Of a stretch of DNA of 34,668 nt, positions 8,435 through 23,118 are shown in pieces. Within the stretch, counting starts at the first letter, position 1. Each line of letters opens with the position of its first letter. The stretch covers positions 1 through 34,668 of the IMG/VR virus record IMGVR_UViG_2737471865_000001; one strand, written 5' to 3'. This DNA comes from a virus (lineage: Duplodnaviria > Heunggongvirae > Uroviricota > Caudoviricetes). Position numbers and translations under genes: made by a program. The notes under the pieces were generated by a model. The model made no database searches. It was not told the origin of the DNA and was given only the letters and a program-made list of their open reading frames with translations.

Positions 8435-11341
8435 ATGACGCCAAGTGAACTTAGCGATCTGCTTTGGGTGCAGGTTGACAGGGTGGCTCCGCACCTGTTG
8501 CCAAACGGCAAGAAAGAGGGGCATGAGTGGGTTGCCGGTAACGTCAACGGTGACAAGGGAAACAGCCTTAAGGTCAACCTTAGCGGCAAGAAAAAATGGG
8601 CTGATTTCGCTGAGGGAGACGGCGGTGACATGCTTGATTTGTGGATGGCATGTCGTGGAATTAACCTGCATCAGGCGATGCATGAAGCGAAAGCATTTCT
8701 CGGAATCAAGGATGACGATCACCATTTCGATGCCAAACGTGAGAAGAAATTCTCCAGACCTGATCGCAAGAAGATCGCCCGCTACGTTACCAGAACAGAA
8801 TCCCATCTTGAGTACCTGCAATCGCGTGGTATATCGCCAGAAATCGTAAAGCGCTACGAGGTTGTCAGCGGCAAGGTGTGGAATGGAGAGCGGGAACTGG
8901 ATGCTCTGGTGATTCCGTACAAACGCGATGGTGAGTTGTTGCAGGTCAAGCGAATCAGCACTGAGCGCCCGGACGGGAAGAAAGTCATTATGGCAGAAGG
9001 TGATTGCGAACCTTGTCTGTTCGGATGGCAGGCTCTGGACGCTGGCGTGAGGGCGGTTGTGCTTTGCGAAGGCGAAATTGATTGTATGAGCTATGCGCAA
9101 TACGGCATCTCGGCGTTATCCGTGCCGTTTGGTGGCGGGAAAGGCGCTAAGCAACAGTGGATTGAGTTTGAGTATCACAACCTCGACAGGTTTGAGGAAA
9201 TATTCATCTCGATGGACGTTGATGATGTTGGTCGTGAAGCCGCAAGGGAAATCGCAAGCCGACTCGGTGAACATCGTTGCCGTCTTGTTACTCTGCCGTA
9301 CAAAGACATCAACGAATGCCTGATGAACGGTGTTACCGAGGATGAAATCTGGCAGTACATTGGCACGGCATCCTACTTCGATCCTGAAGAACTCTACAGC
9401 GCGCGAGAGTTTTACCATGACACTATCAACGCTTTCTACGGCAAGCAGCAGTATCTGTTTAATCCACCGTGGGAATCTCTGGCAGATAAATTCCAGTTCC
9501 GTGAGGCAGAATTGACGCTGGTCAATGGTGTGAACGGTCACGGAAAAGCCTGTCCACTTGATGAACCAATTCTGCTCGCTAATGGTGAATGGACTACTCA
9601 CGGGGATGTAAAAATTGGCGATCAGGTGGCATCAGTAGACGGCAATCCGTCAACTGTCACCGGGATATTCCCGCAGGGTGTTAGAGATGTTTACCGAGTC
9701 ACATTTGAAGATGGTCGTTATGTTGATTGCGCAGGCGATCACCTATGGGAGGTCACTAGTCGTGGATTCACGAAAGGCGAGAAGCGCCGCGTGATAGACA
9801 CCTTCGAGCTGAAACGGTTGAGTGAAACGAAGAGGCACAAAAATGGCGTCAGGATACCCGAAATAACTGGTGACTTTGGCGACCACTCAGAGCCATTAGC
9901 ATGGGTTATCGGCTCCCTTCTCGGGGATGGTAGTCTTAGCAATGGGAGCGTGAAGTTTTCAAACGTCGAGCCATACATGATCGAGCGTATGAAGGCTGAA
10001 CTGCCTGATTACAACTTCTCTGGAGATGGTAAGGACTGGCTGATATCAACGGCGCGTGGTCAGGTAAATCCACTCATGGAGACCCTGCGAGTTTATGGAC
10101 TAATGGGGTGCACAGCAAAAAACAAATTCATCCCTCGTGTGTTTTTTTCCGCAAACAAATCAACGCGTATAGGAATGCTGTGTGGTCTGCTTGAAACGGA
10201 TGGTTATGTCGAGAAGGATGGAACGCTTGTTTTTTCCTCAGCAAGTGAAGAACTGCGTAATGGGGTTGTTCAACTGGTTAACTCACTCGGCGGTTCATGC
10301 CGGACGCGAGTTAAAACTGGCGTGACATACACATACAAGGGCGATAAGCGGCATGGGATGGATTCATATGAGGCAAGGATACGACTGACAAGGGAAATCA
10401 GGGAGGCCATCCGTTCACCACGACTCAATGGCAGATTAACTGCGCATCGATTCGAGGGGTGTGGGGTATTCGTCAGGAATGTTGAAAAAATCGGCAATGC
10501 AGAATGCTTGTGTATCATGGTCGATCACCCTCGCCACCTGTATGTAACCAGAGGATATGTGGCAACGCATAACACCGAGGTTGTCGGGCATATGGCACTT
10601 GAGGCAATGCGTCAGGGTGTGAAGACGTGCATCGCGTCACTTGAGCTGAAGCCTGGTATTCTCCTTAAGCGCCTTACCCGTCAGGCGACGTGCTGCAAGA
10701 TGCCGCCAGTGCTGGAAATTGACTCTGCATTTAAATTTTATGACGAAAGACTTTGGGTGTTTGGTCTGACCGGAACGGCGAAAGCCGACAGGCTGATCGA
10801 AATATTCGACTACGCTCGCCGCCGATACGGCATCCAGTTATTCATCATCGACAGCCTGATGAAATGCGGCATAGGTGACGATGATTATAACGGGCAGAAG
10901 GCGTTTGTTGACTCGATTTGCGACTTCAAAAACAAAACAAACTCCCACGTCATTCTCGTTACTCACTCGCGAAAAGGAGACAGCGAAGAAAAACCAACCG
11001 GGAAAATGGACGTAAAAGGCTCTGGAGCGATAACAGACCTGACAGACAACCTTTTCATCATCTGGCGTAACAAGGCTCGCGAGAGAGCGTTACAGAGAGT
11101 TCAGAGTGGTGAAAAGATGTCAGAGAAGGACGAACAGCTACTGGCATCTCCGGCATCTGTTTTGATGCTTGAAAAACAACGTAACGGCGAAGGTTGGGAA
11201 GGTGGTGTCCCGTTGTTCCTTGACGAGCAATCGCACCAGTTCCTGCAACTTGAATCAGGGTCGCCATATAGCTACATCGCTAATATGCCGAAATCGGAAT
11301 ATGACGAGGCGTGGCGACAGGAAAACGTGACGGAGTATTAA
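8435..11341 (+). CDS. bifunctional DNA primase / SF4 (DnaB/T7 gp4-like) helicase, interrupted by an in-frame intein
   Basis: 968 aa. N-terminal primase region with TOPRIM motifs (VLCEGEIDCMS; ISMDVDDVGRE). P-loop NGVNGHGKA at residues 365..372. C-terminal helicase motifs LFIIDSLM (Walker B), HVILVTHSRKGD and KGSGAITDLTDNLFII align with T7 gp4 helicase motifs. Residues 373..713 are an intein. Confidence 0.88.
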   Translation: MTPSELSDLLWVQVDRVAPHLLPNGKKEGHEWVAGNVNGDKGNSLKVNLSGKKKWADFAEGDGGDMLDLWMACRGINLHQAMHEAKAFLGIKDDDHHFDAKREKKFSRPDRKKIARYVTRTESHLEYLQSRGISPEIVKRYEVVSGKVWNGERELDALVIPYKRDGELLQVKRISTERPDGKKVIMAEGDCEPCLFGWQALDAGVRAVVLCEGEIDCMSYAQYGISALSVPFGGGKGAKQQWIEFEYHNLDRFEEIFISMDVDDVGREAAREIASRLGEHRCRLVTLPYKDINECLMNGVTEDEIWQYIGTASYFDPEELYSAREFYHDTINAFYGKQQYLFNPPWESLADKFQFREAELTLVNGVNGHGKACPLDEPILLANGEWTTHGDVKIGDQVASVDGNPSTVTGIFPQGVRDVYRVTFEDGRYVDCAGDHLWEVTSRGFTKGEKRRVIDTFELKRLSETKRHKNGVRIPEITGDFGDHSEPLAWVIGSLLGDGSLSNGSVKFSNVEPYMIERMKAELPDYNFSGDGKDWLISTARGQVNPLMETLRVYGLMGCTAKNKFIPRVFFSANKSTRIGMLCGLLETDGYVEKDGTLVFSSASEELRNGVVQLVNSLGGSCRTRVKTGVTYTYKGDKRHGMDSYEARIRLTREIREAIRSPRLNGRLTAHRFEGCGVFVRNVEKIGNAECLCIMVDHPRHLYVTRGYVATHNTEVVGHMALEAMRQGVKTCIASLELKPGILLKRLTRQATCCKMPPVLEIDSAFKFYDERLWVFGLTGTAKADRLIEIFDYARRRYGIQLFIIDSLMKCGIGDDDYNGQKAFVDSICDFKNKTNSHVILVTHSRKGDSEEKPTGKMDVKGSGAITDLTDNLFIIWRNKARERALQRVQSGEKMSEKDEQLLASPASVLMLEKQRNGEGWEGGVPLFLDEQSHQFLQLESGSPYSYIANMPKSEYDEAWRQENVTEY
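9551..10573 (+). mobile_element. intein (341 aa) with LAGLIDADG homing-endonuclease domain, inserted in the helicase Walker A loop
   Basis: Begins with Cys immediately after GHGKA (CPLDEPILLANGEW, Hint block A). Two LAGLIDADG-type motifs (VIGSLLGDGSL and LCGLLETDGYV). Ends YVATHN followed by Thr as the +1 extein residue. Flanking exteins together form a contiguous helicase domain. Confidence 0.85.
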
Positions 11342-14508: not shown

Positions 14509-14693
14509 ACGCCACAATTCAAACGATACCAGAGCTTCTTATCCAGACACGAGGCAATCAGACCGAAGTGGCGAGGATGCTTTCCTGCGCAAGAGGAACA
14601 GTGCTCAAGTACAACCGAGACAGCAAAGGCGAGCGTCATGTAATAGTTAACGGCGTCCTGATGGTCAAACAGGGCAAGAGGGGAAGACGATGA
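14505..14693 (+). CDS. ninH: NinH-like small DNA-binding protein
   Basis: 62 aa with TIPELLIQTRGNQTEVARMLSCARGTVLKY, resembling lambda NinH (Fis-like HTH). Confidence 0.75.
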   Translation: MNATIQTIPELLIQTRGNQTEVARMLSCARGTVLKYNRDSKGERHVIVNGVLMVKQGKRGRR

Positions 14694-15178
14694 GCATAAG
14701 AGAACTAAACCTCACCAAAGAGCAGCACGATTGGCTGAATGGCTGGCTTGAACTGTGGGGAGCATGGGTTTATTCAGGTCGTCTTGAAAAGCGCATGAGC
14801 AGCGTAATAGCGAAGTTCATGGAGAGCGTAGAGCCGGGAAGAGTTATGACAAGGCCGATGTGCAATGATGATGATGGAATGTTGATTTCTCAGGTCGTCG
14901 ATTCCGTCATGTACATTGACAAGAAAGCCTTTGGCATCCTCCTCAGCTACTACGCCCACGGTTCTTCCAAGCACGCCATTGCATCTTACTATCATCGCGT
15001 CGCAAGACCTCGCAAGATGTTATGCCGGGGCGGCGGGCGCATTCAAAAACCATCGCTCGCAACCTGTCGTCGGGAAGTTGACGAAATCCTCAATGCCTCG
15101 TTGTTTATGATTTACCCGGTTCTGGATAGTGCGTTTAAAAACCGGAAACGTGTAGAGAAAATTAAACATGTAGCGTAG
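14690..15178 (+). CDS. Q: late-gene antiterminator Q (non-lambda type, probably phage 21/82 family)
   Basis: Called mainly from position: last gene of the nin region, directly upstream of a strong -35 TTGACA and the lysis cassette. 162 aa, not lambda Q-like in sequence; the N gene and nut sites are phi21-type. Confidence 0.55.
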   Translation: MSIRELNLTKEQHDWLNGWLELWGAWVYSGRLEKRMSSVIAKFMESVEPGRVMTRPMCNDDDGMLISQVVDSVMYIDKKAFGILLSYYAHGSSKHAIASYYHRVARPRKMLCRGGGRIQKPSLATCRREVDEILNASLFMIYPVLDSAFKNRKRVEKIKHVA

Positions 15179-15706: not shown

Positions 15707-16030
15707 ATGAAGATGCCAGAAAAACATGACCTGTTAGCCGCCATTCTCGCGGCAAAGGAACAAGGCATCGGGGCAATCCTTGCGTTTGCAATGGCGTACC
15801 TTCGCGGCAGATATGATGGCGGTGCGTTTACAAAAACAGTAATCGACGCAACGATGTGCGCCATTATCGCCTGGTTCATTCGTGACCTTCTCGACTTCGC
15901 CGGACTAAGTAGCAATCTCGCTTATATAACGAGCGTGTTCATCGGCTACATCGGTACTGACTCGATTGGTTCGCTTATCAAACGCTTCGCTGCTAAAAAA
16001 GCCGGAGTAGAAGATGGTGGAAATCAATAA
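15707..16030 (+). CDS. S: holin S (lambda class I holin)
   Basis: 107 aa, [36 protein letters not shown]... with dual-start MKM and three TM segments; essentially lambda S. Confidence 0.96.
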
Positions 16031-16490
16031 TCAACGTAAGGCGTTCCTCGATATGCTGGCGTGGTCAGAGGGAACAGATAACGGACGTCAAAAAACCAGA
16101 AATCATGGTTATGACGTCATTGTAGGCGGAGAGCTATTCACTGATTACTCCGATCACCCTCGCAAACTTGTCACGCTAAACCCAAAACTCAAATCAACAG
16201 CCGCCGGACGTTACCAGCTTCTTTCCCGTTGGTGGGATGCCTATCGTAAGCAGCTTGGACTGAAAGACTTCTCTCCGAAAAGCCAGGACGCTGTGGCATT
16301 GCAACAGATTAAAGAGCGTGGCGCTTTACCGATGATTGATCGCGGTGATATTCGTCAGGCTATCGACCGTTGCAGCAATATCTGGGCTTCACTGCCGGGG
16401 GCTGGTTATGGTCAGTTCGAGCATAAGGCTGACAGCCTGATTGCAAAATTCAAAGAAGCTGGCGGAACGGTCAGAGAGATTGAGGTATGA
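16014..16490 (+). CDS. R: endolysin R (lambda-type lytic transglycosylase)
   Basis: 158 aa [49 protein letters not shown]... matching lambda R; start overlaps the end of S. Confidence 0.95.
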
Positions 16491-16945
16491 GCAGAGTCAC
16501 CGCGATTATCTCCGCTCTGATTATCTGCATCGTCGTCTGTCTGTCGTGGGCGGTCAATCATTACCGTGATAACGCCATTACCTACAAAGCCCAGCGCGAC
16601 AAAAATGTCAGAGAACTGAAGCTGGCGAACGCGGCAATTACTGACATGCAGAAGCGTCAACGTGATGTAGCAGAACTCGACGCCAGATACACAAAGGAGC
16701 TTGCTGATGCTAACGCGACTATCGAAAGTCTCCGTGCTGATGTTTCTGCTGGTCGTAAGCGCCTGCAAGTCGCCGCCACCTGTGCAAAGTCAAAGACCGG
16801 AGCCAGCGGCATGGGCGATGGAGAAAGCCCAAGACTTACAGCAGATGCTGAACTCAATTATTACCGTCTCCGAAGTGGAATCGACAGGATAACCGCGCAG
16901 GTTAACTACCTGCAGGAGTACATCAGGACGCAATGCCTTCGATGA
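16487..16945 (+). CDS. Rz: i-spanin Rz
   Basis: 152 aa with N-terminal TM helix and coiled-coil periplasmic domain; start overlaps the R stop. Confidence 0.9.
16701..16892 (+). CDS. Rz1: o-spanin Rz1 (lipoprotein embedded in the +1 frame of Rz)
   Basis: Lipobox LVVSAC followed by a Pro-rich mature peptide; entirely nested in Rz in a different frame. Confidence 0.8.
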
Positions 16946-17119
16946 TAGCGATAATTTTACTCATCATCCTTCACATCTGGCTCTGTAGACAGGGTGGTGA
17001 TCACTTCTGGAGTGAATCCAGATTAAACATCTCATTGCTGATGCTTGATATTGAGCATCAGGCGCGCGGTAAAGGGCTGCGTTGAGATAAGAGCCAGTCA
17101 TCACAAACACCAGGATTTA

Positions 17120-17143
17120 GCCTCGCATTCGCGGGGCTTTTTT
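17120..17143 (+). terminator. rho-independent terminator downstream of the lysis cassette
   Basis: Hairpin GCCTCGC-attc-GCGGGGC (one G-U pair) followed by TTTTTT. Confidence 0.7.
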
Positions 17144-17290
17144 ACATCTGCAGTAAACCGCGCATCGCAGCGCGTAACAATCCCGAGTCTTTCAGAAAGC
17201 TGAGCCTGAGAACTGCCGTATATGGTGGCGACCATCTCGGGGCGGCTTTTCTGTGCGAACAGGCTCATCTTTCTAAAAGGTAAAGACGCT

Positions 17291-17779
17291 ATGAACCAAT
17301 TAGAAGAAAAGCTTCAAAGAATGATTTCCTTATACAAGGAAGATAGCTGCCAAAAAGTTCCTGAAAACATCGCAGAGTTAATGGAATTGGCAAGTGAATT
17401 TTCTGGCATGCTTAAGTCGTCAGGTGTTCGGTCAGCGTTCTTTGTTGAAATGCTGATGCACGGCGGACTTATGGCAACAATGAGACGTGTAATGGAAGAC
17501 CAGAGAAAAGAACCTCCTCAGGTATACGTTTTGTCATCGAAGAAAACTGGGCTAACCAAAATTGGGTATTCATCCAACATTCCACAACGCATCAAATCGC
17601 TTGGCAACTCTGGACCAGACTGCTTGAAGCTTGAGTGCCTGATCCCTGGTGGAAGAGAAACTGAAAACATGCTTCATCGCAAATTTGCCGCAAAGAGAAA
17701 GCACGGTGAATGGTTCGCCCTGTCCAAGGATGACATTGAGGGATTGAAATCTGTAGCGATTACTTCCGATGGCTATTAA
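17291..17779 (+). CDS. T5orf172-domain (GIY-YIG-superfamily-like) protein with helical N-terminal extension
   Basis: C-terminal region VYVLSSKKTGLTKIGYSSNIPQRIKSLGN...ENMLHRKFAAKRKHGEWFAL matches the T5orf172/MUG113 signature (VYVL..G..KIG...N...R...L, then LH..F...R..GEWF). Start taken at ATG 17291 (MNQLEEK...). Confidence 0.6.
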   Translation: MNQLEEKLQRMISLYKEDSCQKVPENIAELMELASEFSGMLKSSGVRSAFFVEMLMHGGLMATMRRVMEDQRKEPPQVYVLSSKKTGLTKIGYSSNIPQRIKSLGNSGPDCLKLECLIPGGRETENMLHRKFAAKRKHGEWFALSKDDIEGLKSVAITSDGY

Positions 17780-17817
17780 TGCTTGTTTAGAGCAATTTTC
17801 ATAACAACTCTTCATTA

Positions 17818-17848
17818 CAAAGCCCATCTACTGGTGGGCTTGATAATG
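17818..17848 (+). repeat. conserved hairpin element, copy A (AAGCCCA...TGGGCTTGATAATG)
   Basis: Stem AAGCCCA / TGGGCTT followed by TGATAATG, immediately after the T5orf172 gene; a near-identical element recurs at 18726..18758. Confidence 0.5.
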
Positions 17849-18097
17849 AAACCGTGATTTACATCCCCACAATCCGGGTATGTAAAAGATAGTTCAGGCG
17901 AGAACAGATTTAACTAAATCTGTGCACCACCAGTTGCGGCAGTACAGCGAAACAACCCAAGCCAGTAAGTGGGGAAATAACACTGGCAGCCACTGAAAGA
18001 TGAACCTCCTGCCTGATGGCAAAAAAGATTCTTTGTGGTGGCGGACTGATGGAAAGACATCCGCTGAATCGATGATGAACAAGTGGAAGAGGTTGCG

Positions 18098-18268
18098 ATG
18101 GTTTCCGTGAACAAAGATCCGAAGGAAGGCGTTGAATACATCACTGGTGCTGATGGTGTGAAAAGGCCAATGGCTTATTACAAAGCGGCCGAAGAGAGGG
18201 CAAGAATGGAAAATCCCCCTAAATGCGGATCATTTTTCGACATGCTGGACCTTCAATGGAAGTTGTGA
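18098..18268 (+). CDS. hypothetical small protein (56 aa)
   Basis: ATG at 18098 preceded by GGAAGAGG; followed by a terminator. Confidence 0.4.
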   Translation: MVSVNKDPKEGVEYITGADGVKRPMAYYKAAEERARMENPPKCGSFFDMLDLQWKL

Positions 18269-18278
18269 ACAACTAACA

Positions 18279-18300
18279 GGTCGCTCAGGCGGCCTTTTTT
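18279..18300 (+). terminator. rho-independent terminator
   Basis: Stem GGTCGC / GCGGCC (one G-U pair), loop TCAG, then TTTTTT. Confidence 0.55.
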
Positions 18301-18345
18301 ATCGCCATCACAAAAACATCTTTAACAACCAACAAGGTCATAATT

Positions 18346-18717
18346 ATGAACGACCAGCAAATCGAAAAAGAAATCGTTGAGAAAGGCAAAACGGCACCGC
18401 GCGTTACGCCAGACCATATCGAAGGAATTATTGCTCAGGAGGCATATTTCACAGCAGAGGATGGTGCCTTTGGCAAAGCCATAAAAGCTAAACATACTGG
18501 CGGAGAGGTAAACTACCAGCCGCACGAATCACTTTCTCTGCTGACGTTCTGCGTCCTGGTGCTGCGCAACGGCTTCACCGTCACCGGAGAGAGTGCCTGT
18601 GCAAGTCCGGAAAATTTTGATGCAGAAATTGGTCGGAAGATTGCCCGGCAGAATGCTGTAAACAAAATCTGGATGCTCGAAGGTTACTTGCTGAAGCAGA
18701 AGCTAAGCGAACAGTAG
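18346..18717 (+). CDS. hypothetical phage protein (123 aa)
   Basis: ORF with a good start context; may belong to a small phage protein family found upstream of terminase genes, but I cannot place it confidently. Confidence 0.5.
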   Translation: MNDQQIEKEIVEKGKTAPRVTPDHIEGIIAQEAYFTAEDGAFGKAIKAKHTGGEVNYQPHESLSLLTFCVLVLRNGFTVTGESACASPENFDAEIGRKIARQNAVNKIWMLEGYLLKQKLSEQ

Positions 18718-19065: not shown

Positions 19066-19506
19066 ATGGCGCGCCCAACAAAGTATCAAGAGGCGTATGC
19101 CGAACAGGCACGCAAACTGTGCTTGCTGGGCTATACAGACGCAGAACTTGCTGATTTCTTCGAAGTCAGTGAGTCAACTATTAACAAGTGGAAGCTTGAT
19201 TATCCTAAGTTTTCGGAGTCCATAAAAAAGGGTAAGGCCGTCGCTGATGCAGAAGTTAGTGACCGTCTTTATCAACGCGCTATGGGCTTCGTGGCTCCAG
19301 ACATCGATATTCGTGTTATTGAAAACAGAATTGTCGAAACTCCGCTTGAGAAGTATTACCCGCCTGATACAACCGCTGCCATCTTCTGGCTTAAGAATCG
19401 ACAGAAGGATAAATGGCGCGACAAGGTTGATCACGAGCTAACAGGCAAAGACGGCGGCGCAATCCAGATTGAAACATCACCGATGAGCACTCTATTCGGA
19501 AAATGA
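19066..19506 (+). CDS. terminase small subunit
   Basis: 146 aa with HTH-like GYTDAELADFFEVSESTINKWK; stop overlaps the TerL start as ATGA. Confidence 0.75.
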   Translation: MARPTKYQEAYAEQARKLCLLGYTDAELADFFEVSESTINKWKLDYPKFSESIKKGKAVADAEVSDRLYQRAMGFVAPDIDIRVIENRIVETPLEKYYPPDTTAAIFWLKNRQKDKWRDKVDHELTGKDGGAIQIETSPMSTLFGK

Positions 19507-20918
19507 CCTCGATTAATCCTATCTTTGAACCGTTCATTGAGGCGCATCGCTACAAAGTCGCCAAAGGCGGTCGAGGTAGCGGTAAATCATGGGCAATTGC
19601 GAGGCTGCTTGTTGAGGCGGCACGTCGGCAGCCTGTGCGTATTCTTTGCGCTCGTGAACTGCAAAACAGTATCAGCGATTCGGTAATCCGGTTGCTTGAA
19701 GACACCATCGAGCGGGAAGGGTATTCGGCCGAGTTTGAAATTCAGCGTTCCATGATTCGTCATCTCGGAACGAATGCTGAGTTCATGTTCTACGGCATCA
19801 AAAACAACCCGACGAAGATTAAATCGCTAGAAGGTATTGATATCTGCTGGGTGGAGGAAGCGGAAGCGGTAACGAAGGAATCATGGGATATCCTGATACC
19901 AACCATCCGCAAGCCGTTTTCCGAAATATGGGTGAGCTTTAACCCTAAGAACATCCTCGACGATACCTATCAGCGATTCGTCGTAAATCCTCCCGATGAT
20001 ATTTGCCTGCTGACGGTGAACTACACCGACAACCCGCATTTTCCTGAAGTTCTCCGTCTGGAGATGGAAGAGTGTAAACGCAGAAACCCGACACTGTATC
20101 GTCACATCTGGCTTGGTGAGCCAGTAAGCGCAAGTGATATGGCAATCATCAAACGTGAATGGCTTGAAGCCGCAACCGATGCGCACAAGAAACTCGGATG
20201 GAAAGCGAAAGGCGCTGTTGTCTCTGCGCATGACCCATCAGATACAGGGCCAGATGCTAAAGGTTATGCATCGCGTCACGGTTCGGTTGTTAAGCGCATT
20301 GCCGAAGGCCTGCTGATGGACATCAACGAGGGTGCTGACTGGGCTACTTCGCTGGCGATTGAAGACGGCTCTGACCACTACCTGTGGGATGGTGATGGTG
20401 TTGGTGCCGGGCTACGCAGACAGACAACGGAAGCGTTCTCCGGCAAGAAAATCACCGCCACGATGTTCAAGGGCAGCGAATCGCCATTCGATGAAGATGC
20501 GCCATATCAGGCCGGAGCATGGGCTGATGAAGTTGTACAGGGCGACAATGTTCGCACTATTGGCGATGTATTCCGCAATAAGCGAGCGCAATTCTATTAC
20601 GCGCTGGCTGACAGGCTGTATCTGACATATCGGGCGGTTGTTCACGGTGAGTATGCAGACCCAGACGACATGCTGAGTTTCGACAAAGAAGCGATAGGCG
20701 AGAAGATGCTGGAGAAGCTGTTTGCAGAACTGACGCAGATTCAGCGCAAATTCAATAATAACGGGAAGCTGGAGCTTATGACTAAGGTCGAAATGAAGCA
20801 GAAGCTCGGTATTCCATCTCCTAACCTGGCTGATGCGCTGATGATGTGTATGCATTGCCCGGAGTCGGCTGCGCAACCCGACTATTCCAGTTACTCAATT
20901 CCTTGTGGTGTAGGTTGA
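19503..20918 (+). CDS. terminase large subunit
   Basis: 471 aa; Walker A KGGRGSGKS, Walker B-like ICWVEEAE, C-terminal nuclease region. Confidence 0.93.
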   Translation: MTSINPIFEPFIEAHRYKVAKGGRGSGKSWAIARLLVEAARRQPVRILCARELQNSISDSVIRLLEDTIEREGYSAEFEIQRSMIRHLGTNAEFMFYGIKNNPTKIKSLEGIDICWVEEAEAVTKESWDILIPTIRKPFSEIWVSFNPKNILDDTYQRFVVNPPDDICLLTVNYTDNPHFPEVLRLEMEECKRRNPTLYRHIWLGEPVSASDMAIIKREWLEAATDAHKKLGWKAKGAVVSAHDPSDTGPDAKGYASRHGSVVKRIAEGLLMDINEGADWATSLAIEDGSDHYLWDGDGVGAGLRRQTTEAFSGKKITATMFKGSESPFDEDAPYQAGAWADEVVQGDNVRTIGDVFRNKRAQFYYALADRLYLTYRAVVHGEYADPDDMLSFDKEAIGEKMLEKLFAELTQIQRKFNNNGKLELMTKVEMKQKLGIPSPNLADALMMCMHCPESAAQPDYSSYSIPCGVG

Positions 20919-20919
20919 T

Positions 20920-23118
20920 ATGGCAGAAAAAAAGATGACTGACTGGCATCGCAAGGTGCTGTGCAACTTTGATAATGCCTGGTCAGCAACGCAGGATATG
21001 CGTGAGCAGATTATTGAGGCTCAACGTTTCGTCCGGGTATCCGGCGCACAGTGGGAAGGCAGTACAAACGCTGGTTACTCATTTGATGAAGGCAGGTTTG
21101 AGCATTATCCGCGTTTTGAACTGAATAAGATTGCCCGTGAATGTGATCGCATCATTGGCGAGTATCGACAGAATCGCATCAGCGTTAAATTCAGGCCGAA
21201 GGACGATAAGGCATCGGAAGCGTTAGCCGAAAAGATGAACGGCAAATTCCGCGCTGACTATCAGGAAACATCCGGTGGCGAAGCGTGTGATAACGCATTT
21301 GATGATGCTGTAACGGGCGGATTCGGTTGTTTCCGCATGTGTGCCGATTACGAAGATGAAATGGATCCGAGTAACGAGCAGCGACGCATCAGTCTTCTTC
21401 CTGTTTACGACCCAGCGACATGCGTCTTCTTTGATCAGGACAGCAAGCAATATGACCGCTCTGATGCTATGTGGGCTATGGAAATGTTCTCCATGACGCC
21501 CAAAGCGTTCGAGGCTGAATACCCTGATTCCATCGCGGCAAGTCTTTCTCGTGATGACACTGGCACTCAATATGACTGGTCAACTCCTGATGCTATCTAT
21601 GTTGGTCGCTACTACGAAGTTCGCATAGAGAAGGTGAAGCTCACAGCATGGCGTAACCCTGTTAGCGGAGAAACGGCAATCTATGATGAAGAGCAAATCA
21701 AAGATATTGTCGACGAGCTGACCGATGGTGCATTCGAACTGATTGGTGAGCGGACAGTGAAGAAACGCCGAGTTTATTGCGGTCTTCTGTCTGGCGCTGA
21801 ATGGCTGGAAGAACCGAAGCGTATTCCGGGCGAACATATTCCTCTCATCCCGGTATATGGGCGTCGTTCATTTGTTGATAATCAGGAGCGAATCGAAGGC
21901 CACGCAGCAAAAGCGATGGATGCACAGCGTCTTGAGAACCTGATGGTTTCCATGATTGCAGATAACGCTACTCAGGCTGGCGGTGATGGCATTCCTGTAG
22001 TTGATGTTGACATGATTCCTGGTCCTCTTGCCACTCATTGGGCGGAGCGCAACAAAAAGCGCCCGGCGTTCCTGCCGATGGTCAGTCTGAAAAACAAAAA
22101 CGGAGATATTACTGCGCAGGCTCAGGTCAGCAGTTATACACCTCCGACACAAATGCCTCCAGCTCTTGCCGGGCTATTGCAGTACACCGGAACGGCTATT
22201 CAGCAAATTACAGGTGCGTCGCAGCTTGAGAACATGCCGAGCAACGTCGCTACCGATACCGTTGATAGCATCTTTAATCGGATGGACACGCAGTCCTATA
22301 TCTACATGGACAACATGGCTAAATCCATGCGCCGCGCTGGCGTCGTGTGGCTTTCTATGGCGCGTGAAGTCTATGGCAGCGATACGCCAATGCGCATCGT
22401 TAATGAGGACGGCAGCGATGACGTGGCGCTGATGACTGGTGAAGTGGTTGACCGTCAGACAGGGCGGGTTATCGCGCTTAACGACCTTTCGCAGGGTAAC
22501 TATGAAGTGACTGTCGATGTCGGTCAGTCGTTCGCTACTCGCCGTGATGCAACGGTTAAGTCGTTACTTTCCATGCTGGCACTTATCCCACCAGGAACGC
22601 CGAAGCACGACCTTGTATCGTCGATGATTCTCGACAATATGGACGGCGAAGGGATGGACGACCTTAAAGAATACAACCGCAATCAGTTGCTTCTGTCTGG
22701 AGTTATCAAGCCGAGAACGCCAGAAGAACAGCAGATGGTTGAGCAGGCGAAACAACAACAGGCCAGTCAGCCAGATCCGGCTATGGTTGCTGCGCAAGGT
22801 CAGCTTCTTGCTGGTCAGGCTGAATTGCAGAAAGCGCAGAACGAACAGGCAGCCATTCAGGTTAAAGCATTCCAGGCACAGACTGATGCTCAGGTTGCAG
22901 CAGCAAACGTTGTGAAAATCCTCGCATCTGCCGATAGCCAGCAGAAATCTGATATCCGCGAGGCTCTGAAACTGCTCGGACAGTTCCAGCAACAGCAAGG
23001 AGACAATGCCCGTGCTGATGCAGAGCTTGTCCTGAAAAGTCAGGCACAGGGTCATGCGCAGCGCATGGACATCAGCAGCATCCTGCAAAAATCAACTCAG
23101 CAACAACCACAGCAGTAA
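20920..23118 (+). CDS. portal protein (P22 gp1-like)
   Basis: 732 aa; ERTVKKRRVY and the C-terminal Gln-rich barrel region (PEEQQMVEQAKQQQASQPDPAMVAAQGQLLAGQAELQKAQN) parallel P22 portal from memory. Confidence 0.93.
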   Translation: MAEKKMTDWHRKVLCNFDNAWSATQDMREQIIEAQRFVRVSGAQWEGSTNAGYSFDEGRFEHYPRFELNKIARECDRIIGEYRQNRISVKFRPKDDKASEALAEKMNGKFRADYQETSGGEACDNAFDDAVTGGFGCFRMCADYEDEMDPSNEQRRISLLPVYDPATCVFFDQDSKQYDRSDAMWAMEMFSMTPKAFEAEYPDSIAASLSRDDTGTQYDWSTPDAIYVGRYYEVRIEKVKLTAWRNPVSGETAIYDEEQIKDIVDELTDGAFELIGERTVKKRRVYCGLLSGAEWLEEPKRIPGEHIPLIPVYGRRSFVDNQERIEGHAAKAMDAQRLENLMVSMIADNATQAGGDGIPVVDVDMIPGPLATHWAERNKKRPAFLPMVSLKNKNGDITAQAQVSSYTPPTQMPPALAGLLQYTGTAIQQITGASQLENMPSNVATDTVDSIFNRMDTQSYIYMDNMAKSMRRAGVVWLSMAREVYGSDTPMRIVNEDGSDDVALMTGEVVDRQTGRVIALNDLSQGNYEVTVDVGQSFATRRDATVKSLLSMLALIPPGTPKHDLVSSMILDNMDGEGMDDLKEYNRNQLLLSGVIKPRTPEEQQMVEQAKQQQASQPDPAMVAAQGQLLAGQAELQKAQNEQAAIQVKAFQAQTDAQVAAANVVKILASADSQQKSDIREALKLLGQFQQQQGDNARADAELVLKSQAQGHAQRMDISSILQKSTQQQPQQ

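Follow-up and report, generated by a model that had tools for sequence, protein, structure and literature searches.

A structured leader RNA before interchangeable cargo genes in the late region of lambdoid phages, with a T5orf172 gene as one occupant

How is a gene to be expressed when it lies between the lysis and packaging genes of a phage and directly behind an intrinsic terminator? This question is raised by an open reading frame (ORF) of 162 amino acids (aa), belonging to the T5orf172/MUG113 branch of the GIY-YIG superfamily, in the IMG/VR virus record IMGVR_UViG_2737471865_000001, whose whole stretch of 34,668 nucleotides (nt) was analysed (hereafter the window, to which all positions refer) and represents an almost complete genome of a P22-like lambdoid phage. 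A preliminary description of the locus had interpreted the gene as a terminator-insulated moron that is transcribed independently and encodes a candidate exclusion or anti-defence nuclease. The features described there are all present, but the interpretation is supported only in part. We found that the 147 nt between the terminator and the ATG are a conserved structured leader. The gene itself is known and unremarkable, and the leader is the interesting part of the locus.

A structured leader between terminator and start codon

The leader belongs to a module in which an intrinsic terminator is followed by a short hairpin (P2) and then by a long irregular hairpin (P3), in the base of which the Shine-Dalgarno sequence of the gene is paired. 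The strong terminator previously placed at 17120..17143 was recovered from 17119 onward, with the stem GCCTCGC/GCGGGGC (17120-17137) extended to 8 pairs by A17119-T17138, a loop of ATTC, and the run TTTTTT at 17138-17143. A consensus terminator scan taken alone performed at chance level (7 sites in 4 kb, with 4.2 +/- 2.4 expected). The 17119-17143 site carries a terminator annotation in HK106 and epsilon34, and a GC hairpin with a T-run precedes the leader in 26 of 32 independently sampled relatives (0-18 nt upstream in 25 of them and 42 nt in one), as counted from folding energies with G.U-containing stems admitted. The stems in that sample differ and covary (GCCTCGC/GCGGGGC, GCCTGAC/GTCGGGC, GCCCG/CGGGC and GGCCTGCAT/ATGCGGGCC). 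Given the conservation of a hairpin and T-run before the leader, the terminator is the conserved first element of the module.

Variants of P2 preserve its stem by double changes (TGCGT/ACGCA, GCGCA/TGCGC and GCGCC/GGCGC), and this hairpin is poorly represented in the covariance model described below, in which 2 of its pairs are used. P3 is about 95 nt long and is closed by a base helix in which GUCUUU (17187-17192) is paired to AAAGGU (17276-17281), the latter including the Shine-Dalgarno sequence. The leader stretch is more stably folded than its shuffles (z = -3.3). For a first set of leaders, contigs were gathered by the terminator pattern. Alignment of 25 diverged leaders by MAFFT with RNAalifold left the structure unrecovered, the arms being misaligned, and separate folds and a covariance model were used instead. 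Folded separately, the 25 variants share one common architecture. The covariance model was seeded from nine close relatives, and its E-values are rough owing to a short calibration. It found a single copy in the window (17158-17293, 147 bits). In all it recovered 58 copies, spread over 56 sources: 50 viral contigs, four phage records, one E. coli prophage and the window itself. In the resulting 58-copy alignment, 95.9% of cells are paired, compared with 37-47% when the partner is slid, while changes on both sides are seen in 30 of 33 pairs and the 189 compensatory cells compare with 13-24 in the slid controls; none of 500 shuffles matched this pairing and compensation. Double changes extend to the base helix, where they occur in five of the six pairs. 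There are 100 G.U cells for 16 A.C cells, and the model reaches about 22 bits on the reverse strand; this G.U excess together with the low reverse-strand score indicates a structure on the sense RNA rather than a DNA feature. A second sample, for which loci were picked solely by the P3 arms with one genome per species, yielded 30 loci from about 25 Enterobacterales genera, including Pantoea, Rahnella, Serratia, Brenneria, Buttiauxella and Enterobacter. Its 32 hits are 98.5% paired and show double changes in 24 of 33 pairs.

The effect of this pairing on the ribosome-binding site (RBS) was then estimated by prediction. The AAGG of the Shine-Dalgarno sequence has a median predicted probability of being unpaired of 0.03 in the full leader, versus 0.35 with the 3' half alone (25 alleles), and the value is below 0.15 in 20 of these 25 alleles. 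With its conserved pairing of the Shine-Dalgarno sequence, backed by covariation, the RNA is thus classed as a predicted RBS-sequestering leader. The same space had been the place to look for a promoter. However, a consensus-type scan detected no plus-strand sigma-70-like site in 17144-17290, nor in the HK620 and HK106 leaders. The independent transcription proposed earlier is therefore not borne out, as the interval from terminator to ATG holds a structured leader instead, and the terminator thought to insulate a moron is the conserved 5' part of a cassette module within the late operon.

No gathering-level Rfam match was obtained in the window, with chance-level scores only in 16900-18400 (E at least 0.7). 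Likewise, no RNA annotation was present at the leader in 165 phage records, and the leader was not described in the literature found on rha/IHF or on RNA motifs 5' of KilA-N/Rha genes. Similarity to the leader-module DNA is found in about 36% of complete E. coli genomes (1972/5426), and the leader with strong strand-specific covariation is found in about 90 prophages from about 25 Enterobacterales genera. It occurs in P22-like phages, HK620, HK106 and Stx-converting phages, and is absent from both the DLP12 and Qin prophages of K-12.

Tandem same-strand copies of the leader, each with its own downstream ORF, were observed at loci L092, L121, L127, L144 and L147, which suggests small arrays of leader-cargo units. 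In the four of these loci that were inspected for it, the second tandem copy has a terminator-like hairpin immediately 5' of it in L121, L127 and L144, and none at L147.

Some other candidate features overlapping the leader were considered and rejected. A longer ORF of 185 aa would begin at an in-frame ATG at 17222, but this codon lies at the apex of the leader hairpin, and HK106-type and other alleles lack it. A minus-strand ORF of 55 aa (17268..17101) with a helix-turn-helix-like stretch, SQAQLSERLGI, is the exact antisense of the leader and is inconsistently annotated; it was judged spurious because its conservation is explained by RNA pairing and because it crosses the terminator stem. A T4-like promoter within the hairpin (TATATG, 17219-17224) has no acceptable -35 element and is unconserved.

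An inserted cassette with interchangeable cargo

The module and the gene lie on about 714 bp (17108-17821) that form an inserted accessory cassette just 3' of the lysis genes. This follows from Sf6, in which the site is uninterrupted: window position ~17107 is joined straight to 17822 (...GAGCCAGTTCATTACAAA followed by GCCTATCTACGGGTGGGCTT..., with GCCTATC right after the junction), and the Sf6 sequence at the empty junction reads GAGCCAGTTCATTACAAAGCCTATC... The same empty junction is present in six phages of the collection (Sf6, SEN22, mEp213, mEp043, 611R6 and 683R2), while the site is filled in this window, in HK106 and in 80 E. coli genomes, representing a presence/absence polymorphism at one locus. 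The earlier view of a non-core gene inserted between lysis genes and terminase is thus supported. An imperfect 10-bp direct repeat with the consensus TCAT(C/T)ACAAA lies on both sides of the window cassette (Table 1), and a near-copy of it surrounds other cargo in HK620 (the KilA-N gene hkbK plus hkbL). A similar sequence, ATCACAAA, stands 5' of the terminator in HK106 and J31, whose upstream backbone differs.

The conserved hairpin noted earlier downstream of the gene is present and covaries, being kept with compensatory changes in Sf6, HK620 and others (the variant AGCCACTC/GAGTGGCT retains the stem), but it does not qualify as the cassette's own terminator because it has no U-tract and because its presence in the empty-site phage Sf6 assigns it to the backbone, outside the cassette. 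In one viral contig the terminator is followed directly by CCATTACAAAA and the backbone hairpin, with leader and cargo absent.

We then asked what the module carries elsewhere. Phages with different cargo are homologous from the lysis genes up to and across the terminator and the leader, and this homology ends only a few bases from the ATG (17295/6). The same cassette is found after the lysis genes in the HK97-like phage HK106, before HNH/terminase, and in the lambda-like prophage of E. coli J31, before nohD/terminase. A Pfam scan of 51 distinct proteins encoded directly behind the leader assigned 16 to Rha, 15 to KilA-N, 12 to ORF11CD3 C-terminal, 5 to HNH_3 (one with AP2), 5 to T5orf172/MUG113, 2 to ANT and 2 to Bro-N, besides a few tail-fibre-like or unknown proteins. 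The ORFs directly 5' of the leader units are mostly spanin/endolysin-like, as judged by eye rather than by a profile scan.

The ORF itself shows signs of recent movement. Between the window, HK106 and J31 it differs at 1-3 of 489 positions (99.4-99.8% identity), of which 0-1 are synonymous (among about 104 synonymous sites), while identity in the same comparisons falls to 85-88% over the terminator and leader and to 95-97% over the 3' flank. The near-identical tract shared with J31 (Table 1) has flanks that are 3-15% diverged, and that shared with HK106 covers 17269-17816. These tracts suggest that the ORF, with about 20-125 bp of flank, moved recently between P22-like, HK97-like and lambda-like phages, always into the same slot, and their pattern is what homing-type gene conversion would be expected to leave, although non-nuclease cargo also reassorts with leader alleles.

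Lambdoid late operons have one promoter, from which a Q-modified polymerase that ignores intrinsic terminators reads through. The cassette gene is oriented as the late operon is. We suggest, as a proposal that we judge nearly evenly poised and leaning slightly to the negative, that the terminator and the two hairpins constitute an undescribed and widespread class of cis-regulatory RNA, a portable expression dock in lambdoid prophages of Enterobacterales for swapping potentially toxic DNA-binding and nuclease genes (Rha, KilA-N, Bro-N, HNH and T5orf172). Under this proposal the terminator would silence the cargo in the lysogen and the masked Shine-Dalgarno sequence would throttle its translation in lytic growth, and RNase III, or else a factor from phage or host that binds the conserved loops, might release the lock. 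P22 has one late promoter, and the roles of terminators within the operon were called unknown by the authors of the phage L study (PMC8022706). If true, the module would explain why an intrinsic terminator is found at this slot, well inside the late operon, and would show how lambdoid phages swap toxic cargo at one position with late expression undisturbed. The module is a strongly covarying RNA of some of the best-studied temperate phages that has no Rfam family and is unannotated in the 165 phage records, and the leader offers a testable handle on the roles of Rha, KilA-N and T5orf172 proteins late in infection.

The same observations bear on the moron proposed earlier, namely a gene transcribed on its own and expressed from the prophage, whose nuclease would exclude superinfecting phages or counter host defence. 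A terminator at its 5' side would insulate such a gene from the late operon, and the gene is accessory and prophage-borne (the whole gene is present in 80 of 5426 complete E. coli genomes, ~1.5%). However, the 147 nt in which its promoter should lie are devoid of a promoter-like site in three leader alleles and form a structured leader, the gene follows the late-operon orientation between lysis and packaging genes, the terminator and leader are common to cargo that is not defence-like, and the hairpin downstream is part of the backbone and without a U-tract. We consider this explanation quite unlikely, and the points concerning the protein are taken up below.

Table 1. Coordinates of the leader module, the cassette and the surrounding genes in the window
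Feature	Position	Strand	Basis or remark
Intrinsic terminator (module element P1)	17119..17143	+	8-bp GC-rich stem, 4-nt loop, T6
Short hairpin P2 (CGCGC-ATCGCA-GCGCG)	17159..17174	+	Double changes in variants
Long irregular hairpin P3	17187..17281	+	RNAalifold consensus of close relatives, single folds, covariation
Shine-Dalgarno AAAGG	17276..17280	+	10 nt 5' of ATG; CUAAAAGG nearly invariant over leader alleles
T5orf172/MUG113 (GIY-YIG superfamily) gene, 162 aa	17291..17779	+	ATG 17291, TAA 17777-17779
N-terminal three-helix bundle, aa 1-72	17291-17506	+	AlphaFold model
Nuclease-like domain, aa 73-162	17507-17776	+	Profiles and model
Left copy of imperfect 10-bp direct repeat, TCATCACAAA	17098..17107	+	Insertion junction, Sf6 comparison
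Right copy of direct repeat, TCATTACAAA	17812..17821	+	Sf6 / HK620 comparison
Near-identical tract versus J31 lambda-like E. coli prophage	17269..17905	+	1 difference in 637 bp; diverged either side
Backbone hairpin, AAGCCCATC-TACT-GGTGGGCTT	17820..17841	+	9-bp stem, loop UACU, without U-tract
Q-type antiterminator	14690-15178
Holin	15707-16030
Endolysin	16014-16490
Rz/Rz1	16487-16945 and 16701-16892
Small Sf6-gp65-like ORF	16933-17085
Small terminase	19066-19506
Large terminase, Sf6-type	19503-20918
Portal	20920-23118

The nearest relatives across 14-22 kb of the window are CUS-3, vB_EcoP-720R6 and HK620, and two or three small ORFs lie between the cassette and the terminase genes. In this interval, 17843-18061 represents about 220 bp without a plus-strand ORF of at least 40 aa; it is 93-99% conserved in Sf6, HK620, HK106, epsilon34 and the J31 prophage, is partly called a remnant of ST64T orf118 in the epsilon34 record, and contains a sub-threshold match to the Rfam Proteo-phage-1 RNA at 17928-17991 (18.7 bits versus a gathering score of 42). 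Further downstream, 18062-18331 is a second small insertion relative to Sf6, with a 61-aa ORF at 18083-18268 and a strong terminator (AGGTCGC-TCAG-GCGGCCT plus T5, 18278-18295) just 5' of an Sf6-gp66-like ORF (18346-18717). This is again a terminator within the late operon before an accessory gene, and the covariance model finds no leader there. In the replication region, a plus-strand ORF of 968 aa (8435-11341) is unusually large for a P22-like phage.

The encoded protein and its possible role

The C-terminal T5orf172/MUG113 signature reported earlier is real. The quoted motifs are present (VYVL 78-81, KIGYS 90-94, R100, LH 128-129 and GEWF 139-142), and the profile search that had been suggested placed both Pfam families above their gathering scores: MUG113 (PF13455) with E=6.7e-15 over aa 90-151 (55.9 bits versus a cut-off of 22.3), and T5orf172 (PF10544) with E=2.9e-10 over aa 78-150 (41.0 bits versus 20). 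Pfam GIY-YIG proper (PF01541) stayed below its cut-off (E=0.19, 12.5 bits versus 22.6), as is to be expected because the T5orf172 branch is divergent. PHROG 4284 matches the whole protein (2.7e-87), NCBIfam gave no match for it, and the sole sequence-profile match in the PDB is the UPF0213 GIY-YIG protein 1zg2 (E=0.04, over YVYVL..G..GY..R). The RefSeq name is 'GIY-YIG nuclease family protein' (WP_016245257). In the AlphaFold model (predicted local distance difference test 90.7), helices 3-20, 23-43 and 49-71, which agree with the helical N-terminal region described earlier, are followed by a beta-beta-alpha-beta-alpha-beta-alpha domain that contains the beta-beta-alpha-beta-alpha core fold of the GIY-YIG superfamily. 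The residues expected of a GIY-YIG nuclease, a Tyr in strand 1, an Arg in helix 1 and a metal-binding Glu, correspond to Y79, R100 and E140, as matched to I-TevI residues by motif position rather than by superposition. An alignment of 50 diverse homologues shows no variation at Y79, K90, G92, R100, E125, H129, E140, W141 and F142. The T5orf172/GIY-YIG assignment is therefore solid on three counts, the profile, the residues and the predicted fold.

A structure search with the whole model returned generic helical bundles or nothing; T4 EndoII and Eco29kI are among the structural matches. The N-terminal bundle is acidic and the catalytic domain basic, and the bundle is probably an oligomerisation or partner-binding module. 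It is found only together with the T5orf172 domain, in few enterobacterial clusters, whereas the domain is very common (11,248 cluster representatives at E<=1e-3). A Pfam scan of longer relatives with extra N-terminal sequence revealed no informative domain in them, and one homologue, P0044, carries Bro-N. Relatives P0002 and P0031 are decay variants (E140G, at the presumed catalytic glutamate, in a 114-member Salmonella cluster; a contig in which a deletion fuses the epsilon34-type first 106 aa to the DUF2560 protein HkbM).

With regard to defence, GIY-YIG domains do act in it, as in SNIPE, a membrane-bound nuclease that cuts injected phage DNA (bioRxiv 10.1101/2025.11.03.685801), and the PADLOC candidate PDC-S57 matches the protein weakly, at the level of the domain (E=7e-6, aa 73-146). 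However, PDC-S57 was the sole PADLOC match, is confined to the nuclease domain, and no system model was matched beyond it, while the model of the protein has no transmembrane segment and Pfam found no DUF4041. Nothing that we found favours an exclusion or anti-defence role. The statement that the function of T5orf172 domains is largely uncharacterised has also become outdated, as one study presents T5orf172 proteins as a family of homing endonucleases that stand free in phage genomes, mostly near terminase genes, the latter being their commonest neighbours and present in 35% of T5orf172 neighbourhoods (PMC10448857).

The reading we favour, held tentatively and as possible rather than probable, is that of a selfish, homing-endonuclease-like late nuclease that is transcribed by Q-modified polymerase and damped in translation. 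It has us infer nuclease activity, homing, late-only transcription, and translational repression together with its relief. The terminator would stop unmodified polymerase and leave the cargo silent in the lysogen, and the terminator-resistant, Q-modified polymerase of the late operon would be the sole route to the gene. The leader hairpin would limit translation by base-pairing with the Shine-Dalgarno sequence, and RNase III might release this lock by cutting the long stem, as an analogy with the lambda N leader would suggest. We counted in its favour the insertion with its empty site, the use of one slot in three phage types (HK106, epsilon34 and the J31 prophage), the near-clonal ORF, the scan without a promoter, the structure of the leader, the single late promoter of P22, and the published accounts of T5orf172 and HNH-AP2 homing endonucleases and of hairpin control in T4. 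To these are added the decay variants (E140G and the hkbM deletion fusion), which are typical of selfish genes, and the HNH_3 and T5orf172 nucleases that each make up 5 of the 51 cargo proteins. The gene on its own would add little, being another small T5orf172 nuclease that is already annotated in HK106 and epsilon34 and is most simply regarded as a selfish element.

Several points weigh against this reading. A non-consensus promoter may lie 5' of the gene. The covariance-model alignments lean to the modelled structure, and both sets of loci were picked by sequence patterns. The window's own allele is an outlier, in which the AAGG has a predicted probability of being unpaired of 0.54, is about half paired, and a G.U pair occurs in the base helix. 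Around 35 of the 51 cargo proteins are DNA-binding proteins of the Rha, KilA-N or Bro-N type rather than nucleases, and one Rha allele sits behind different leader alleles, so that reassortment between leader and ORF characterises the slot as a whole and does not prove homing. Finally, 87% of the T5orf172 homing endonucleases surveyed carry zinc-finger domains (PMC10448857), while the N-terminal domain here was matched by neither Pfam nor NCBIfam and resembles, in structure searches, only generic helical bundles, and no sequence-specific DNA-binding domain was found.

One alternative is a late nuclease that does not home, but nicks or degrades the DNA of the host, of a co-resident prophage, of a satellite or of a competitor phage during lytic growth. 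P22-like phages package host DNA, which makes wholesale degradation of host DNA unlikely. The small size of the protein, its lack of an obvious DNA-targeting domain, its basic catalytic domain, and the presence of T4 EndoII and Eco29kI among the structural matches would fit such an enzyme, as would the strict double gating of its expression if the enzyme is toxic. T4 endonuclease II and Odn, the origin-directed nuclease of ICP1, would be precedents, and T5orf172 nucleases are reported to have served as anti-satellite weapons (PMC8263062). Nevertheless, the enzyme would be without a known target, and the near-clonal spread of the ORF is more simply explained by selfish mobility. We regard this alternative as unlikely.

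The composition of the cargo raises a further alternative, in which the protein works mainly by binding DNA or as a regulator, as a functional counterpart of the Rha, KilA-N and Bro-N cargo, and its T5orf172 domain serves to bind rather than to cut. The same leader and slot do carry Rha, KilA-N, Bro-N and ANT proteins in the numbers given above, T5orf172 is often the C-terminal partner of KilA-N/Bro-N in other viruses, as in the homologue with Bro-N, and CapR sets a precedent, as a domesticated T5orf172 protein that descends from homing endonucleases of this family and acts as a repressor (PMC10448857). However, the catalytic-type residues are all invariant over the 50 diverse homologues, which argues for retained catalysis. 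We consider a mainly binding or regulatory role very improbable.

Comparison with known systems

The gene and its alleles have been annotated before. HK106 gp64 is the same gene, with 99.4% DNA identity and the differences S19N and M61R, while epsilon34 gp68 is a divergent allele with 30% aa identity and the same two-domain architecture, slot and leader. HK106 gp64, epsilon34 gp68, WP_016245257 and PHROG 4284 are all without an assigned function.

For the leader, the RNase III site of the lambda N leader offers a comparison, being a long irregular stem 5' of a phage gene that occludes the RBS. There is no sequence similarity between the two leaders, and opening by RNase III would be a mechanistic analogy only. 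With lambdoid morons (Juhala et al. 2000; usage in PMC2629481) the locus shares an extra gene between conserved late genes that is absent from close relatives. By contrast, a classical moron has its own promoter at the 5' side and its own terminator at the 3' side, whereas here the terminator is 5', a promoter was undetected, and the 3' hairpin is backbone.

In the gene itself, the closest likeness is to the free-standing genes for T5orf172 homing endonucleases that Barth, Dunham & Seed (2023, PMC10448857) described from ICP1, T5-like phages and others. In common with these, it is phage-encoded, has a C-terminal T5orf172/GIY-YIG domain, adjoins packaging genes, shows presence/absence polymorphism, sits at a boundary of genetic exchange, and has HNH(-AP2) genes in equivalent positions, T5orf172 and HNH-AP2 being the two phage homing-endonuclease families treated by those authors. 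It differs in that an acidic three-helix bundle takes the place of the zinc-finger (CapR, DUF723 or DUF4397) or another recognisable DNA-binding domain, in having only 162 aa, in its residence in temperate lambdoid phages, and in a leader common to non-nuclease cargo, and its homing is putative.

The control proposed here resembles that of T4, in which the homing endonuclease genes I-TevI/II/III, segB and mobE and the late genes e and soc have RBS-sequestering hairpins (PMC2988022). In both cases a nuclease gene lies on a long polycistronic phage transcript with its Shine-Dalgarno sequence in a stable hairpin. In T4, a late promoter inside the hairpin gives rise to open transcripts, whereas none was seen internally here. 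By contrast with the T4 hairpins, the structure described here is about 95 nt long, has a terminator and a second hairpin upstream, and is portable as a module, serving many cargo genes that are unrelated to one another.

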